This document shows positions 1,990 through 46,741 of a stretch of 64,000 bases of DNA, piece after piece. Within the stretch, counting starts at the first letter, position 1. Each line of letters starts with the position of its first letter. This DNA is from Macrostomum lignano (Eukaryota): contig NIVC01001597.1 in assembly GCA_002269645.1 (NCBI GenBank), positions 62,001-126,000 on the forward strand. The letters are read 5' to 3'. The translations under genes and the position numbers were made by a program. Under the pieces are notes generated by a model. It saw only the letters and a program-made list of their open reading frames with translations, did no database searches and was not told the DNA's origin.

Positions 1990-3215
1990 TCACGAAATTA
2001 TTTCTCTGCTGCGGCAGCCAAGAGCTTGTTGCGGGTCGACCTGCACCTACAAGTACATGCTCGCTGCATCCGGCTGTTCTGCACGTACTCATTCACAGCT
2101 GCTCATCCAGAGGAGGCACGAGTGTTCTTGACCTCCTAGCTGGGCAGCTGGAGGAAGTGCCAAACCGGGACACACTGGTGGTGCTTGGAGACCTAGTTCT
2201 TTTGTCACCGGACGCGAGAACGCCAACACGGTCACGCTGAAGTTACCTGCTAAACTGGCTAGATCTAGTGTCCACTAACACCCAGTTCCACAAGCCTTCC
2301 TCCTGCCTGGTCACTTAATTTGCGCTCTGCAAGAGGAGGCGGCAGGATGCACGTGGGCGGAACGCGGAGGGAACGCCACTCGATCGCTTACTGCGTTACT
2401 AACTGCGACACAGGGGGGGGGGGGGGGCGTAGCCCAGCGGTCTAGCGCAGGCTCTGGTGTGCCAGCGACCCAGGCTCGATTCCAAGTGCAGTCACATTAA
2501 TTTGGGGCTGAATTGGAATCTCGGCTTGGCTCTGCTCGTGCAATTAACGGCCTTGAGAGCCAACCCCCCAAGGTGCAGTGAAGTGTACATGCCTAACGAT
2601 AAAATAAAGTTAGGGCCGCTGTACACTCCTGTGTGAGTGTGTGCCTGCGTACGTATCCGCGCGCTTGTATGCCTGCTCAGGGGAGTCGGCGGAATGGGCA
2701 GAAATGCCTCTCGCCGGTTGTGTGCCTATGTGGCTTAAAGTGCGCCAGGGTGCACACAACCCCCCTGTCTCTAATAAAAAAACTGCGACACCATGGCATC
2801 GCGCTTGGCGATCAGCGCGAGGCGTTGGGATACACAGACATCAGCGCTGCCGTGAGAGCGGTTTATGAACAGACGGTCCCACTGATGCGATCTGCACAAC
2901 GACCCTGCCTATCTGGTAGAGCGACCCCACCCTCGGGCGGACGCGTCTACCTTTGTGAATTGTGCGACTTCCTCTCGTCAGCATCGTGAACGCGCTAGAG
3001 CCGCCTATGCTCATCAACTTCTCGCTCCCGCCAGACACGCCGCTACAAGCCAAGGAGGACTTCTGCAGCAACTTAGTTACCAAGAAGTTCCCAAGACTTC
3101 CCAAGTAGTAGCAAGCGTGTTGAACTGCGTGCTTACTGGCACTCCCGCATCCACTGAGTGGAACACAGGGCACATTGTGACTATCCCGAAGAAGTCCGGG
3201 ACAAAGCGGAAAGAC
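1990..3215 (+). pseudogene. Degenerate LINE ORF2 relic (AP endonuclease to start of RT), split by a SINE
   Basis: Frameshifted peptides LAGQLEEVPNRDTLVVLGDL (~2140-2195), DLVSTNTQFHKPSSCLVT (~2262-2315) and PASTEWNTGHIVTIPKKSG (~3145-3200) match LINE APE and pre-RT motifs. Confidence 0.75.
2412..2780 (+). mobile_element. tRNA-derived SINE, copy 1
   Basis: A box TAGCCCAGCGG, B box GGCTCGATTCC, tail CTAATAAAAA; 11-bp TSD aactgcgacac at 2401-2411 and 2781-2791. Confidence 0.9.
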
Positions 3216-3406
3216 AAGGAAATCTCACCCATGAGGGCCAACCCCAAGGCACAAGAAGTGTACATGACAGGATCAGGATCAGGATCAGGATCAGTTGTGA
3301 TCGAAAAACAATGTGGTTGAAGGCGTTGCGCCAGGTTGCTTATACAGCCCTCCTGTGCATATTTATTATTTGGACGATTTTTACAGACATTTCCGTCCCA
3401 GTAGTG

Positions 3407-4443: not shown

Positions 4444-4805
4444 TTTATTAGAGGCAGGGGGGGGGCTGTGTGCACCCTGGCGCACTTTAAGCGACATAGG
4501 CACACAACCGGCGAGAGGCATTACTTCCCATTCCGCCGACTCCCCTGAGCAGGCATACAAGCGCGCGGATACGTACGCAGGCACACACTCACACAGGAGT
4601 GTACAGCGGCCCTAACTTTATATTATCGTTAGGCATGTACACTTCACTGCGCCTTGGGGGGTTGGCTCTCAAGGCCGTTAATTGCACGAGCAGAGCCAAG
4701 CCGAGATTCCAATTCAGCCCCAAATTAATGTGACTGCACTTGGAATCGAGCCTGGGTCGCTGGCACACCAGAGCCTGCGCTAGACCGCTGGGCTACGGCC
4801 CCCCT
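4444..4805 (-). mobile_element. tRNA-derived SINE, copy 2 (inverted relative to copy 1)
   Basis: Near-identical reverse complement of copy 1; 13-bp TSD catctgcttgtct at 4431-4443 and 4806-4818. Confidence 0.9.
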
Positions 4806-5377
4806 CATCTGCTTGTCTGTAAATTTAGAAAAGTACACATGAATCGCTTCTTACTGAATTGCGGAACACAATCAATGTCTCTTTCCTGATGTTGCTTTGA
4901 ATGCGCTCATTTCTGCCGTCTTAACGAAAGAACTGTACGTCCTTTACTGACATTTACAAGTGGTTTCTACTCGAAACAGAAATCGTCTGGATTACAATTT
5001 TTTCTTTATTTGCTCAGTGCATTTCTGTCAATCAGATGTTGACCGAATCATTATCGATATAGCTAATATACGCTCGCAGATATCTCTCTTTTAATGGTTA
5101 AGTTAGCTGATTACAAGAAGTACGTTCATTATGTCGATTTTTAAAAGGCCACTAGAGTTTATCTATGTTTGAAGGAATATCGCTTGAATATACAGTAGGG
5201 TTCCTGTGACCCATTTTAACTAATTTATAATAGCGATTTTCGGTGTTGGTTGCACCAAAAAAGGTCACATTATATATGACGTATTTACATGATATTTACA
5301 TGCACGTTATGACACACATGCCACCCAATCAAAACTTTTAAAAGCCCAAACAACTGCTGAAGTAGAAGGATGTAGGC

Positions 5378-38600: not shown

Positions 38601-39071
38601 GCACTAAAATTACATGTAGAATTCCTGCGTAGCCAAGCTGCTTTGATAGAGACTTAGGCCGCCATGCATATATACTACATGTACATGTAAATGCTTGATC
38701 TCATCGATTATAAGATGTACATGCAGTTTTCAGTTTGACTATCAAAGACCTTGCATGCATAAATTCAGCTGATATTCAGTAATAAAAATTTTTCAATTGC
38801 CGTCCGCCTAAGACGCTGTGAATGAAGACACATGTCAGAGCTGATAAAGATAAGATAAGCTAATGTAATTACGAGTCAGTATTGATATTGTAGCATATGT
38901 GCAGTGTACATTCGTAGGAGGGCTGCCGGCAACCCTGGCGCAACGCCATCGTCTCGCAAACCAGCGCTGACTCCCATTCCGCGGACTCCTGAGTACGCAT
39001 GTACAGTACCATAATGTATGCATAATCCAGCAGTATACATCATGTATGTATCATGTATGCACAATCCAGCA

Positions 39072-39603
39072 GCAGGCTGGCCTGCGACTCCGCTGCCTCC
39101 ATGGCCCTGGCCACCCGGACCGCCTGGCCCAGGTCCACGTTGTCCATGGCCAGCAGCTTCCTGCGGAGCTGCTCGGAGTTGCAGCCGGCGATCAGCTGGT
39201 CGCGGATCAGAGAGTCCCTGAGGCCTTCGAATTTGCAGCAGTCTGCGGTGTCGTTGAGCCGCCGCAGCCAGTCTTCCAGGGACTCTCCGGTCTGCTGGAT
39301 CCACAGACGGAACTGGTAGCGTGTGAAGGGCAAGTTGAGCTGGCTGATGAAGTGCTCATTGAGAGCCTTAATGAGCTTGTCGACGTCATCTCCGGTTTCG
39401 GCGAGACCGGCTGCAATGGCCTGTAGGTCCTCGCCCGCTGTGTATAGAAGGAGTTGGCGAAGTCGCTTCTTGTCAGAGATGTCAGCGGCCGCGGCGAACA
39501 GCTGGAACTGAGCCAACCACTTGCTCCACTTTGTATGTGCCGCATGGGGCTCCTCGCGCAAGTTCAATGGCGGCGGTGTGGGTAGGCTAGCTTGCCACGC
39601 CAT
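39072..39603 (-). pseudogene. 3'-truncated Ty3/Gypsy gag
   Basis: KWSKWLAQFQLF, RYQFRLWIQQTGESLEDWLRRL and LIRDQLIAGCNSEQLRRKLL; breaks off into a CATG-rich repeat. Confidence 0.85.
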
Positions 39604-39795
39604 TGTAGTGCGCTTGTGTGTGGCGAAAAACCTGGTCTCGTGGACCGTATATTAGAGCTATTATATCAACTCACTTCCGACGTGCGGCTACAGTGTTACG
39701 CAATGGTTGACGGGGCCAGTGCTAGTGCACGTTGGACAAGAGGGCGAAAGCTAGTCAGAGAAAAGCGTGAAGGCATAGAGGGGGCGTACACTACA
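39604..39795 (-). mobile_element. 5' LTR (192 bp) of the Gypsy fragment
   Basis: Ends TGTAGTG...CACTACA; followed after 1 nt by the PBS-like TGGCG. Confidence 0.75.
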
Positions 39796-39983
39796 ATCAT
39801 GTATGTATCATGTATGCATAATCAAGTATGCATCATATATGTGTCATGTATGCATAATCCAGTATACATCATTTATGTACAAGTATGCATCATGTCTGCA
39901 TCATGTGTTTATCATATACAAGTATGCATCATGCCTGCATCATGTGTTTATCATGTACAAGTATGCATCATGTCTGCATCATG

Positions 39984-41293
39984 ACTACTATGGACTGCAA
40001 AATCCGTTGATTTTGGAGGTGGGGTGGGTGTCAACCCTCCTCGCCTCTCATTGGCTGGCGCCCTGATCACTAGGTGATCGATACGCGTATCGATATCGGC
40101 GCTTGGCGCGCGCGCGCCGCAGGCGCGTGGCGCCAAGCGCCGCAGGCGCACCCTCCCGATATGTACCCCGATATGTATGCCCACCCTCCCGATATGTACC
40201 CCGATATGTACACCCTCCCGATATGTATACCCACCCTCCAGAGCAGCAGGCGCCCATGCCGCAGGCGCCCCATGCCGCAGACGCCCATGCCGCAGGCGCC
40301 CGAGTGTACACTCTCCCGAGCCAAAGGTACACTCTCCCCAGTACGGGTGTACACTCTCCCAATACAGGTGTACACTCTCCCAATACAGGTGTACACTCTC
40401 CCAATACAGGTGTACACTCTCCCGATATGTAGTCAACGATACGTACCCCGCAGACCCCCTATACCTCACACCCTGCCCCCACCTAGCCTCTTCCCCTCTC
40501 TCACCCGCATCTCAACTAGCGAAATCGAACTCAGGTCGCGCCCATACTAGGCCACTACACGGTTGGGTATAGGAAGTTTCAGCCCCGATGCTGACGCAGC
40601 CCTGTACAGTGAGCGTGTACGGGCAGAGAGGGGTGGGTGGACAGAGAGCCAGCCACTAGGTTGTTATACTGTTGAAGCATAGGGAGCGAGAAGTTTTAAC
40701 CCCGACGCTGACGCAGCCCTGTACAGTGAGCGTGTACGGGCAGAGGGTGGGTGGAAAGAGATGTGAACAACACAGCCTGCTGCAGGAGCCGGATAGAGAG
40801 GCGCATGCTAGGACAGAGAGGCAGTGTGAGTCACACACACCCCACAGAGAGAGTCGTACAGAGGATAGAGAGCTCCCTCCCCAGTTGCAGGGGACAGAGA
40901 GGCAAGCAGGGTATGCAGGGGCATGCGATCAGTCAAGGGGCCACGCGAGGATAGAGTGGAGGAGCAGAGATGTGTATGGACAGAGAGCAGGCCACGCGTG
41001 CGTAGTGTGAGGGAACAGAAACATATGGAGCAGGAGGGAGATAGGGAGCAAACGCTCTGGGTAAGGGAGCCACACAAGGGAGCCATGCAGCAGGGAGCAG
41101 TGTACAGTGAGACACGGGCAGGGGTGGAGCCGTGCGTGGACAGAGCTGAACGGCCTGCGGCGCGCGCGCGCCGAGCGCCGATATCGATACGCGTATCGAT
41201 CACCTAGTGATCAGGGCGCCAGCCAATGAGAGGCGAGGAGGGTTGACACCCACCCCACCTCCAAAATCAACGGATTTTGCAGTCCATAGTAGT
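39984..41293. mobile_element. 1310-bp non-coding element with 141-bp TIRs and 6-bp TSD
   Basis: TIRs 39984-40124 and 41153-41293 with one mismatch seen; TSD atcatg at 39978-39983 and 41294-41299; termini ACTACTATGG..CCATAGTAGT. Confidence 0.9.
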
Positions 41294-42013
41294 ATCATGT
41301 GTTTATCATGTACAAGTATGCATAATGTATGTAATCTGTATCATGATTTAATCGACATTCCTTCTAGAAGACCCTGGCAACATGCGTGCATGTATTATAC
41401 AAATATGAATCAAGCACAGAAGACATTATCGCTAAGAAGTGTTTAACTGGTGACACAACAACGCCACAGCTTCTATAATAACTAATAATTCCCCTTCATT
41501 TAAGTTCCAACCTCTTTTAAATTCCGCTTTATTTAATAATTAACATTAAACAGCTTAGTAAATAGTTAGTTAAAATTATTTAAACACAACGCAATATGCC
41601 AAGGGTTGCTTTGGAATTTCGAAGAACAGACGGCAGCTACACAGACTAGAGAAGAGATTTTAGACAGAGAACACTGAACCCGTACAGAATACAATACAAA
41701 TAAATAACATTTATTAAGCGTAATAGGAAACACAAACCGGACACCCATAAACACAGCAATATTAACACAATATTATAGTATTATAACATCTCTACTCGTA
41801 AATGAAATAAGAGAACACAGAGAGACAGAATAAGACAGAGTAAGCGAGGGAGCGAAAAACCAACTTTAATAAAACGAAAAAATGAAAAAAACTACAGACA
41901 ATTCAGTTTTTATGGCGTATATTTAAATCCTCTTCTAAAAGGATTTTTTTCTATTGACGTATTTTAATTGATTCTTTTATCAACTGCCAGCTTTCTAAGC
42001 AAGCCTGGGAAAA

Positions 42014-42602: not shown

Positions 42603-42893
42603 TTACCTAGCCTTGGACTTCAGCGTATTACTTAGCCAGTCAAGGCCCTCATACAGACCCTCTCCGTTCGTAGCGCAGGTGGCCTGGATGTACCAGGTGC
42701 GGTTGCGCAGCGAGTGCAGTCCGAGCTTATCCGTGAGCTCCGCAGCGTTCATGGCATTGGGCAGGTCCTGCTTGTTGGCGAACACCAGCAGGATGGCGTC
42801 ACGGAGCTCGTCTTCGTTCAGCATCCGCATCAGCTCTTCGCGGGCCTCGCCGACTCGCTCGCGATCATTGCTGTCTACTACGAAGATCAGGCC
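42603..42893 (-). CDS. ARF1: ADP-ribosylation factor (class I) exon 2
   Basis: [14 protein letters not shown]...[11 protein letters not shown]...IQATCAT; acceptor TTTGCAG; 182 aa total. Confidence 0.96.
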
Positions 42894-42914
42894 CTGCAAA
42901 TTGAATGTTTTGTG

Positions 42915-42991
42915 CATGATCAATGATCCCTTATCCCCTCAATAATCCTGATCCCTTATCCCCTCAATAATCCTGATCCCTTATCCCCTCA
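42915..42991. repeat. 25-bp minisatellite, left part of an array split by the EnSpm element
   Basis: Unit aataatcctgatcccttatcccctc; resumes at 51451. Confidence 0.9.
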
Positions 42992-43870
42992 CCCGCTGGA
43001 AAATAGGGACGGATATTTGGTTCGGATATAGCGTATCCGGATCCGGATAGGGGCACTTTTCCGAATGAACGGCCGGATATGTCCAGATATGACATTTTAT
43101 CCGAACTATATCCGGACAAGTCGTATCCGGACGAATATCCGGATTATCACCCGGATATATGACTTATCCGGACAAAAAATTCCGGACTTTTCATCCGGAT
43201 ACCAAACCTCTTGGTTCGGATACTCTACTATATCCGGACAAGTCGTATCCGGACGAATATCCGGATTATCACCCGGATATATGACTTATCCGGACAAAAA
43301 TTTCCGGACTTTTCATCCGGATACCAAACCTCTTGGTTCGGATACTTACCGCACTGTTTTTTCAATGCATATATGGCCTTCTTCAATTTTTCGCTCACAT
43401 CAACCCTGGATTTTAGAAAGCTGTCCATGAGAGCTAATGTGGTCACTGAATTTCCAGTTACAACTACCTGACTAAATTTTATCTGCAATGCCTAAAATTA
43501 AGTGTCTGAAATTTTCCTGTGTGCAAATACAATTCGGCACCAATGTCAATGAAAGCTACTTGAACACTGGACTTAAGTTTTTTATTTTCAGTTATTGCCC
43601 TTTAATCAAGTAGTAAAATTGCTGTTAGCTAAACAAGTTGAAATATTAGGATATGGATATACAGTTGGATATTGAATAGGCAGCAAGATTGATTTGCAAA
43701 ATATAGATGAATATTTACTTTCGAGTAATCGGTTTTCATAGTATGTATACATATACGTCTCCTAGTCATAATAGTGAGGTAATTTTTTAGGCAAATTGTA
43801 TGCATGTAGAAATAATAGTGACGCATGAAATGCATTCAACAAATTTTCAGCTACTTTTACTAACGCACAC

Positions 43871-45646
43871 ATGGATCAGAACAGCGAGGCAGAAAAGCAG
43901 CGAGCGTATATGCGAAATTACATGTCTGACTATCGGCGTGGCATAAAAAGACGCAAGGAAAATGCAGTAGCCCAAGCAGGCAGCAGTGGCAGCGCAAGCA
44001 GAATGCGCGAATTACGCCATCGCAGGCTCATGGAAGGGCTAGACAATGTTGCCGAGGACGTCCAAGCCGGTGCTCAAGGTGTTGCCGACCTTGTCGACGA
44101 TGCTCATGATGCTGTCGGCGATGTTCAGTATGCGGCCGACATTTTCGACCATGGCCATGAGGCTGCAGAAGAAGGCGACAATGCCCAAGCAGACGAAGAA
44201 GAAGGCGACGATGCCCAAGCAGACGAAGAAGAAGGCGACGATGCCCAAGCAGACGAAGAAGAAGGCGACGATGCCCAAGCAGACGAAGAAGAAGGCGACG
44301 ATGCCCAAGCAGACGAAGAAGAAGGCGACGATGCCCAAGCAGACGAAGAAGAAGGCGACGATGCCCAAGCAGACGAAGAAGGCGACGATGCCCAAGCAGA
44401 GGAAGCCCTCAGTGCCTTTTTATCGGTGCCGCTATTCGAAGGCAAATCAGCCTCATTGGGCGAGGCTGTAAGGCTTCTTGAGACATTTTCTTTAGCAGCC
44501 AAGATAAAGAGGCCCGACATGAAACTCCTGCTGCTTACGCTGCACAAAATATTTCCAGGCTGCAACCTTCCACGGTCGATATTCAAATACTCGCAGCTTA
44601 CCAAAGCAGTTGCGACTCGAGCTGTGCACGGGTCCACGAAATGCTATTCTGTCTGTACTCAGTGTGGTGGTACATCACCGGGTCGGAACGTCCCGTGTAC
44701 GACTTGTGACACATTAGACGGTCCTGCCCATTTTTGGTCATTCGACCTCGCAGCGCAGCTCCAACAAAAGATTAGCAATGGCTTGCTGACTTACGTCGTC
44801 TGGCCGGAAGATCTGGCGTTAATGGATGCCAATCGACTACACTACGCCACAAGTACTCTGTACAATGAGTTCGTTCAGGGTGTCGACATCCGACGTAGAT
44901 CCGATCTGACGTATAATTTGTGCTGCGATGGTTTTTCTGTGCATTCAACTAGCCACACAGAAGTGTGCCCAGTGTACCTCACCATCACTGAAGTGATTCC
45001 GAGACTTCAGTGGAAGTTCGTAGTACTGTGCGGCCTCTGGGCCGGAAAGGTAAAGGTCCAGGCAGCATCGTTTATTCCCATTATCGCCAAAGAACTGAAT
45101 AAACTGCGGACGTCAGGTGTTTCTGTCGGCGATGGTACAGCACATCGGCTACGGTTCCATCCCATGTTGGCAATATTTGATGCTCCTGCTCGGGCCGATG
45201 CTCTTGGAATGCGTCGTTTCAACTCAGTGTATGGATGTGATAAATGCTACATAAAAACTCGTCCTCAACCGTCAGGATACGGTCGGTATTATCCCACGGA
45301 TATCACACCTGCAATGCTAAACGCTGCTAGAGCGAAAGGGTGCATGGAACCCTCCGTGAGAACACTAATGGACACACATGCAGTAGCTGCGCTCCAGGCC
45401 GAAAGAGTACACCACCCCGGACTGCGTGACGCAGGGGATACTCTGGGAGTCAAGTTCACTTCCCCTCTGAGTGGCATACTCGGATTCGACTATATTCAGG
45501 CCACGCCACCATGCTATCTGCATCAATTTTTGTCCGGCCCGGCTAAGCAGATGCTGTCTCAGCTGTTTCTTATCAGGCGAGACAAGTCTGACCCGAATGT
45601 TTTGCAACCTGATTTGAGCAGCAAGCTGCTGGATGTAGACAGTGAG
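43871..45646 (+). CDS. EnSpm/CACTA transposase exon 1
   Basis: LCCDGFSVH (first D), FDAPARA (second D), FNSVYGCDKC and CYLHQF motifs; donor GTACGT at 45647. Confidence 0.9.
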
Positions 45647-45724
45647 GTACGTTCTTTCATTACTTAGTTCCTAATTGAACTTTGCTTGTCGCGTGTTGCT
45701 TATTTGAACATAATTTAATTTCAG

Positions 45725-46741
45725 GTTGCAAGAATTAAAGTTCCACAAGCTATTCAGCGAATCCCACGCCGACTTGCTGAGTTGAAAAGGTTCCGTGGAC
45801 ACGAATACGAGGCCTGGCTTCTAGTGTATGGCCCTATGGTATTAGATTCATTCCTTGAGGTTCGCTACAGCGATCATTTAAATTTATTTAAAGTGCTTTC
45901 GTCCACGATGTTCTGGCTTAGCCTTCAGAACGGGCCAAAAAGTGAGTTACCTCACGTGCGTACTACACTCCGATACGTGTTTGCAGCGCTGGCTCGCCTG
46001 TACTCCGTTCGAGCGCAGTCTTACAATGCTCATCAAGTGTGCAGTCATATGACGGACTACGCATATCTAGCTGGACCTGTGCACCAACAGTCTGCTGGAC
46101 TCATGGAGTCGATGCACTGCCGTCTCAAAACGCTTCTACATGGTTCTCGCTTGCTTGACGTCGAGCTGGTGAACACTGTCGAACGGCAGCTTGCGGCTGA
46201 CCAAGATTTTGCATGCGTGTCTCGCCTGGAAGCGTCAGCGAATACAAGACCGTGCCGTGCGTTCCGACGCTTCGGAAGTGTTGTGGCGCAACGAAAGAGA
46301 CAAACTCAAGGGCGATTTTGGATGGCTGCTGAATTCGACAATGGACTGTTTGTCGAGACATTTAAATTGCAAATGCGCAACCGTCGTCGCGTCTCCTGTT
46401 TTGTAGCCATACAACATCGCGAAGACCTATCTTTTGAATTCCTTCGTTTGAAATCCATTGTCAACACAGATGATGGTCGGCTGTGCGTTGCTGTGCAAAA
46501 TGTCGCAGTGGAAGTTCCCCCCGCAGTGGAGGAACCTCTCTATAAATTGTCAGGTGTTCCTGATGAAGCTCAGGATCGTGGATGCCGGTTTGCTCATGTG
46601 CGTCGTCTTCTGTGTGATCCATTCGTTGACACTCTGCCTGAACCAACTCAAGAAGTCGACATCAATGAGATAGTTGGCTGCTGTGCGGTGTCCGAAACGC
46701 ACATCGCTCTGCTACCTCACGTGCAGCTTCCAATGGGCTAA
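45725..46741 (+). CDS. EnSpm/CACTA transposase exon 2
   Basis: 78-bp phase-0 intron; FRGHEYEAWLLVYG, YNAHQVCSH and GPVHQQSAGLMES (catalytic E candidate); total 930 aa. Confidence 0.88.
   Translation, partial: VARIKVPQAIQRIPRRLAELKRFRGHEYEAWLLVYGPMVLDSFLEVRYSDHLNLFKVLSSTMFWLSLQNGPKSELPHVRTTLRYVFAALARLYSVRAQSYNAHQVCSHMTDYAYLAGPVHQQSAGLMESMHCRLKTLLHGSRLLDVELVNTVERQLAADQDFACVSRLEASANTRPCRAFRRFGSVVAQRKRQTQGRFWMAAEFDNGLFVETFKLQMRNRRRVSCFVAIQHREDLSFEFLRLKSIVNTDDGRLCVAVQNVAVEVPPAVEEPLYKLSGVPDEAQDRGCRFAHVRRLLCDPFVDTLPEPTQEVDINEIVGCCAVSETHIALLPHVQLPMG

Follow-up and report, generated by a model that had tools for sequence, protein, structure and literature searches.

A non-coding insertion in Macrostomum lignano as the likely parasite of a Polinton-type transposon with a split genome

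A short insertion without genes and with Polinton-like ends raises the question of which element it derives from and which proteins could have copied and inserted it. The insertion described here lies in a 64-kb stretch of Macrostomum lignano DNA, hereafter the window (Table 1). The initial annotation had described it as a non-coding element with 141-bp terminal inverted repeats (TIRs) differing by one mismatch, a target site duplication (TSD) backed by the host repeat, and an interior of short repeats, and all of these features were borne out. The two TIRs are 99% complementary with the mismatch only at TIR position 121, the termini read directly as ACTACTAT..ATAGTAGT, and excision of the element with one TSD in silico restores an intact 39-bp host repeat unit. 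The 23-nt tip occurs twice in the 64-kb window and in none of 100 shuffles. The interior contains repeats of 33, 21, 15 and 117 nt, from which the reading frames that cross it derive. Within the window tblastn gave no match to Polinton proteins, the element itself carrying neither a protein-primed polymerase (pPolB) nor an integrase, and an Rfam search of the element returned no known RNA. A second contig, C3395, carries this same insertion between the same flanks (99.8% over 3.3 kb); the 1.3-kb form is therefore a single insertion, with no family of 1.3-kb copies.

Table 1. Features of the 1.3-kb element and its insertion site (window coordinates)
Feature	Position	Strand	Basis
Left 6-bp TSD, ATCATG	39978..39983	.	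direct reading and host repeat unit
Right 6-bp TSD, ATCATG	41294..41299	.	direct reading
Host 39-bp tandem repeat, insertion target	39878..39983, resumes at 41294	.	repeat unit comparison
Invariant terminus ACTACTA (ACT repeat; predicted slide-back initiation site)	39984..39990	+	unchanged in 100/100 ends; function predicted
Hypervariable tip of fixed length (positions 8-27), same module set as segments P and S	39991..40010	+	diversity and sharing
Left TIR, 141 nt here, with conserved TTTTGGAGGTG box and GC-rich hairpin-forming palindromes	39984..40124	+	self-comparison
Part homologous to the P TIR (458 nt)	39984..40441	+	comparison with segment P
Satellite-arm interior; patches 40583-40617, 40698-40734 and 40811-40904 match subterminal DNA of segment S	40442..41154	+	
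Deletion junction with GC microhomology: parent arm ends, right terminus begins	41153..41154	.	6 parent loci continue differently
Right TIR, the parent's last 141 nt	41153..41293	-	self-comparison

Several neighbouring features of the window were recorded. At 39040-39796 (minus strand) a single LTR-like stretch (~39604-39796, TGTAG..CTACA) is followed by a gag-like frame (PNMA, 25 bits), together a truncated LTR retrotransposon that likewise sits in the ATCATG host repeat. An uninterrupted fragment of an ARF GTPase (42603-42938, minus strand; Pfam Arf E 2e-35) lies amid repeats and may be an exon, a retrocopy or a captured piece. Frames of 612 and 340 codons (43829-46738, plus strand), the first without a Pfam match, are flanked by related repeat arrays (42.9-43.3 kb and 51.0-51.9 kb); we take them to resemble a CACTA/EnSpm-like transposase.

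With good though not complete confidence, we read the window element as an internally deleted form of a 6.7-9.4-kb satellite, likely copied by the pPolB of one element, segment P, and likely inserted by the integrase of another, segment S, all three having the same ends. Because the ends of the window element are those of polymerase-only and integrase/capsid-only elements, it is likely a parasite of a virus-like transposon with a split genome. The initial annotation had proposed a non-autonomous satellite of a divergent Polinton-like element, and that proposal is supported. Its alternative, an unclassified superfamily, finds no support. The helper split, the 9-kb palindromic parent and the deletion origin of the short TIR were not foreseen in it.

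A genome search with the TIR gave 267 candidate matches, of which the best 40 were scored, and the TIR-bearing copies fetched were of two types, non-coding and coding. The non-coding copies are palindromes of 6.7-9.4 kb with arms of about 3-4.6 kb. Fifteen of them are inverted repeats from end to end (96-99.6%) and 97.8-99.9% identical to each other, and all 15 full palindromes have one and the same central loop of ~80 nt, asymmetric and flanked by CA/TG repeats; other satellites lack part of the centre. Within one satellite arm no ATG frame is longer than 145 codons, no GT-AG joint indicating a hidden spliced gene in the arm was among those listed for the public runs, and no transposase was present in the bounded copies examined for open reading frames. 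The TSD is 6 bp in 22 of 23 satellites and 5 bp in one (some being duplicates of one insertion).

Nucleotides 1-1171 of the window element correspond to the left part of a satellite arm (80-99%) and then pass over GC to the last ~140 nt, a junction that is missing from six parent loci. The window copy is an internally deleted satellite and its 141-bp TIR is a deletion remnant, a length true of this copy but not that of the family TIR, the parent arms being ~3-4.6 kb. It is probably a dead-end deletion product. Its junction was not among the listed joints of the public runs, which has no bearing either way. Similar derivatives are a 4.1-kb one-arm form, a single insertion found on three contigs, and a 3.2-kb pair on C190.

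The two arms of a satellite resemble each other more closely than they resemble other copies. Median substitutions per site are 0.0004 against its own arm, 0.0019 against the closest other copy and 0.014 against a typical other copy, with two exceptions among 21 satellites (L107, L113) whose own arms are as different as, or more different than, the closest other copy; for several young satellites another copy is as close as the own arm. Thus the inverted duplication of one end and the templating of the arms on each other, both features of copy-back, are found together (with the 2/21 exceptions). The arm is also a mosaic: nt 1-458 come from the P TIR, and later patches together with a 280-nt block (~71%) come from the S TIR. 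Hybrids of satellite arm and polymerase DNA exist (L056, L057). These hybrids, together with palindromic derivatives of P itself (the whole set being L056, L057, L152, L045 and L178), suggest repeated copy-back events. One clean non-coding palindrome with S2 ends was found (L238), and a second candidate (L237) was dropped as a satellite, since its flanks are mirrored too. A CTACTTATAGTAG hairpin motif with a second ACTACT lies ~400-450 nt from the end in the P TIR and at ~3.1 kb in the satellite arm, with 144 exact genome matches; it is a possible internal origin.

The coding partner whose TIR makes up the start of the satellite arm is segment P, an element of 8.5-9.7 kb with TIRs of ~0.9-1.4 kb that encodes a spliced pPolB and a PC4-like protein. 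One polymerase exon has 50 genome places at 91-100% and ~30 at 66-73% identity (134 candidates, all scored). We scanned 46 P loci, 27 of which have both ends in the fetched stretch (some being duplicates of one insertion), and all 27 bounded copies have a 6-bp TSD. The initial reading turned on TSD length in other copies, and tabulation gave 6 bp in 49 of 50 two-ended P and satellite copies (a few being one insertion on two contigs). Inside these 50 bounded copies the searches found no integrase, capsid, protease or ATPase, all 27 P copies lacking integrase and capsid; as a positive control, the same queries find other Polinton families at ~30%.

The P polymerase matches PF03175 above cut-off with intact Exo and Pol catalytic motifs, and its best fold match is phi29 polymerase (E 8e-11; AlphaFold model, pLDDT 77, of a sister-family database model), the PDB sequence search being empty. 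Residues 750-860 match giant-virus proteins and look, we presume, Vsr-like. The gene has seven exons, and its six GT-AG joints appear in 2-3 of the three public runs that we guess to be RNA and in none of the comparison run. Exon 5 is under purifying selection (pN 0.005 against pS 0.069 over 26 copies). All five long exons are open in 10 of the 27 copies; 17 carry a frameshift in a long exon, possibly from assembly errors. The small divergent gene resembles PC4 (Atlas 0.90; in the sister family, Pfam PC4 at cut-off), and a 359-aa orphan frame gave no Pfam and no Atlas match. A UniRef protein labelled Macrostomum lignano matches the polymerase at 100% identity, 44 of the 51 matches bearing that label, and no relatives outside the species were found above ~40%.

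Several candidates were set aside. A 40.6-kb TIR pair on C271, considered as an autonomous master, is a P copy with a nested canonical AGT-ended Polinton (TIR 350 nt, own TSD GAGATA). Next to the truncated P copies L073 and L170, the integrase matches resemble those of LTR retrotransposons, and the match at L065 lies outside the element. Compact Polintons reached via the PC4 gene were rejected too, having AGTAGTA ends and their own polymerase-like frame. We also observed that some P2 copies carry a dUTPase gene (L081 7016-7546, L176, L186, L188, L189), and that two LTR-retrotransposon gag-pol units fill the ACT-ended element of L046 (C558). The nested Polinton on C271 spans ~32 kb (L040 5828 to L041 6572) and belongs to a PLA2-like integrase family of at least 104 copies. 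At least three further Polinton families bear an integrase (L136, L142, L144, L147; L242-L243; L092-L115), the compact ones having variable tip positions 8-21, and in the C234 Polinton family the polymerase appears interrupted too.

The complementary genes lie on segment S, which was found through a tip-variant pattern and a foreign integrase query. S is ~10.4 kb with a TIR of ~650 nt, encodes integrase, capsids, protease and ATPase, and has two subtypes, S1 and S2. Full interiors were read for one S1 copy (C1711) and eight S2 copies, other S1 copies being known from their ends, four of them with an integrase match. The C1711 copy (10.3 kb) has ends of ACTACTA, tip and TTTTG, an irregular TSD and a broken minor-capsid frame; it encodes Fic, four unknown frames of which one is weakly TBP-like, two small frames that are conserved, and the rve integrase, minor capsid, major capsid, protease and ATPase. 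The integrase scores above the Pfam cut-off (PF00665, 38.2 bits), and the major capsid protein (MCP) and ATPase match resident Polinton proteins at 26-31% by tblastn. The minor capsid and protease are presumed assignments from position and motifs. The S1 TIR has 74 candidate genome matches, mostly paired 10.2-10.5 kb apart; the TSD is 6 bp in 8 of 9 scorable pairs, two of which share flanks, and two further pairs have a damaged tip. The eight S2 copies (8.3-12 kb) have ACTACGTA ends like the second polymerase family and, by script, a 6-bp TSD in seven. No polymerase catalytic match was found in any S copy read (one S1, eight S2). Polymerase-like matches in two S2 copies cover only residues 1-86 of a database gene model, look like intron read-through and were rejected.

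The genes for pPolB, integrase, ATPase and capsid, which the initial annotation proposed to seek on long copies, were found on two separate elements. Neither partner encodes the cut-and-paste transposase that would have spoken against a Polinton-like origin; one encodes pPolB, and the other rve integrase, capsid, protease and ATPase. A metagenome scan gave one distant MCP contig. In segment S1 (L240) the Fic-domain gene lies at 2447-3253 (53.6 bits) and the weakly TBP-like frame at 4791-5327 (E 2.5e-4). In two S2 copies (L224 7909-8154, L234 3654-3804) there is an insert that resembles sequence upstream of the P2 polymerase core, a hint that the segments may exchange DNA.

P, S and the satellite have a common end format of ACTACTA, a 20-nt hypervariable tip and TTTTG. 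Positions 1-7 are invariant, positions 8-27 have a diversity of 0.48 at constant length, and positions 28-60 have 0.02. Among 100 ends there are 36 tip types, all four gametes are present in 117 of 171 tip site pairs, and P, S1 and satellite have five 17-nt tip types in common. Of 50 copies, 37 have two identical tips, seven have tips that differ by 1-2 nt, and in six the difference is larger. A second P/S set, with ACTACGTA ends, shares tips likewise, one 27-nt tip being identical. S and the window element have in common ~32 nt of terminus and short patches only. We conclude that P, S and the satellite share a recombining tip code. Tip variability as such is not unique to the ACT-ended set, since compact AGT-ended Polintons vary at tip positions 8-21 too.

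Together these data suggest how the satellite may be propagated. P transcripts are spliced, and the segment codes for the PC4-like protein and for a pPolB whose catalytic motifs are intact. The pPolB would prime at ACTACTA ends with ACT slide-back. A displaced satellite strand could then fold into a 4.4-kb hairpin with one open origin, with which the arm identity agrees, and copying round the 80-nt loop would restore the inverted dimer; a satellite regenerated in this way would be a copy-back defective genome. The S integrase would insert any molecule with these ends, and the 6-bp TSD is what such insertions carry. Tips may recombine among co-replicating P, S and satellite molecules. In the window copy ~7.5 kb were lost across a 2-nt microhomology, either before the insertion or later. 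Complementation among the three is what their shared ends and complementary gene content point to, whereas the ends, TSDs, gene content, splicing, selection, palindromy and arm homogeneity are direct observations. These proposed steps follow the Polinton model with its single-strand racket intermediate (PMC4196379) and the pPolB layout TP-vOTU-EXO-PALM (PMC11161782).

The best-surviving alternative, which we nevertheless consider unlikely, is that deletions in an ordinary one-piece ACT-ended Polinton, absent from the assembly or the sample, gave rise independently to P, S and the satellites, and that this master moves all of them. P and S together total ~19-20 kb, a normal Polinton size, and distant IMG/VR relatives (L275, L276) have pPolB beside integrase. 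The genome searches give lower bounds and score only the best candidates, so an unsplit master could be missed. However, all 134 polymerase-exon candidates were scored and none lies between the ends of an S1 pair, and integrase is missing from 27 of 27 bounded P copies. Furthermore, the TIR interiors of P and S differ, and the split is present in two lineages whose proteins are 65-85% identical; taken by segment, S1 against S2 gives 82% for integrase and 85% for capsid, and P1 against P2 gives 53-72%.

Still more doubtful is a supply of integrase to P and the satellite by the abundant canonical AGTAGTA-ended Polintons, with S as a parallel dependant and not a partner. Polintons with AGT ends and integrases of their own are by far the more abundant (the family of at least 104 copies and further families), both end types read AxTAxTA, and one P copy contains a nested AGT Polinton. 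Nevertheless the AGT families share no tip modules and no TIR DNA with P, whereas S does, and S has its own integrase, only 34-35% identical to those of the AGT families.

Foldback elements have long palindromic arms with internal minisatellites, and the satellites have this look. Mobilization of a foldback or MITE-type element by an ordinary cut-and-paste transposase is nonetheless very unlikely here: the first 458 nt correspond to the TIR found on a pPolB element, tips are shared with P and S, satellite-arm/polymerase hybrids occur, and the same-ended partners encode pPolB or a Polinton integrase, with transposase absent from the bounded copies examined. The shared ends already contradict that reading. 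That the giant palindromes are long-read assembly artefacts is the least credible explanation, for although one second-set palindrome has mirrored flanks and whole arms are not spanned by any public contig, the flanks are unrelated and bear a 6-bp direct duplication in 22 of 23 satellites, 15 have the same asymmetric loop, and arm DNA is present in four public runs.

The reading of a satellite dependent on P and S can be set beside known systems. In comparison with animal Polintons/Mavericks (PMC8097293, PMC8502044), the 6-bp TSD, long TIRs and trinucleotide terminal repeat are the same, as is the gene set of pPolB, rve integrase, major and minor capsid, protease and ATPase taken across P and S. 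In contrast to the elements described there, the genes lie here on two separately inserted elements, pPolB on one and integrase on the other; the ends are (ACT)2 instead of (AGT)2, (AG)3 or (AC)3A; the P pPolB has six spliceosomal introns where intact vertebrate elements are described as intronless; and there are 9-kb palindromic satellites. The marks by which the initial annotation recognized Polintons were present, except for the 5'-AG start, all ends starting with AC. Swamp-eel Mavericks are reported to have (AC)3A ends (PMC8097293, section 7); AC-initial ends are unusual and not unprecedented.

Mobile Polintons of Pieris mannii lacking polB (10.1101/2025.02.07.637071) likewise spread without it, implying supply in trans; complete elements coexist there, whereas our searches recovered none with ACT ends but did recover a reciprocal element that has the polymerase only. 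The Bidnaviridae (PMC4061559) also have two segments, a conserved terminal structure and a Polinton-derived PolB. P and S are likewise complementary segments with shared termini, as in a bidnavirus-like segmented virus. Bidnaviruses are described as having ssDNA, a parvoviral capsid on the PolB segment and no integrase, in contrast to the dsDNA-type Polinton capsid and integrase on a polymerase-less, germ-line integrated segment here. Polinton-derived cytoplasmic linear plasmids (PMC11161782) resemble P as pPolB replicons without morphogenesis genes, but P is spliced, nuclear and integrates with 6-bp TSDs. The open literature covered, which further included PMC10748475, PMC3014272 and PMC6431247, describes neither a split Polinton nor palindromic Polinton satellites, and no Polintons from Macrostomum.

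The palindromic replicons of phi29 and kalilo share with the satellites the inverted duplication of one end, a predicted hairpin intermediate and the lack of genes. Esteban et al. in 1997 reportedly obtained the phi29 palindromes in vitro, and Vierula and Bertrand in 1992 are said to have described the kalilo hairpin deletion derivative. By comparison, the satellites are nuclear, 9 kb, TSD-flanked, present in dozens of copies, and have a mosaic arm from both helper segments.

Non-autonomous Polintons as such are already known; the additions made here are that the palindromes belong to the P/S system and that the tip code is common to all three. To our knowledge, Polintons have been regarded as elements in one piece, and no direct demonstration of their replication model exists. 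In a laboratory flatworm, a split, spliced and recently active pair now comes with a catalogue of integrated palindromic by-products, and the predicted hairpin intermediates are preserved in its genome. The cis ends are defined, with 7 invariant and 20 variable nt, for work on protein priming and end recognition by the integrase, and the system explains giant gene-less palindromes that otherwise resemble foldback transposons or assembly errors. A broader reading, which we regard as evenly poised, is that of a bipartite integrating dsDNA virus in an animal, with polymerase and integrase/capsid segments that have diverged twice and germline copy-back defective genomes, in which the fixed-length, recombining 20-nt tip code beside the origin would act as a compatibility or competition signal. 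If this is true, genome segmentation and defective-interfering DNA would both occur in this virus class.
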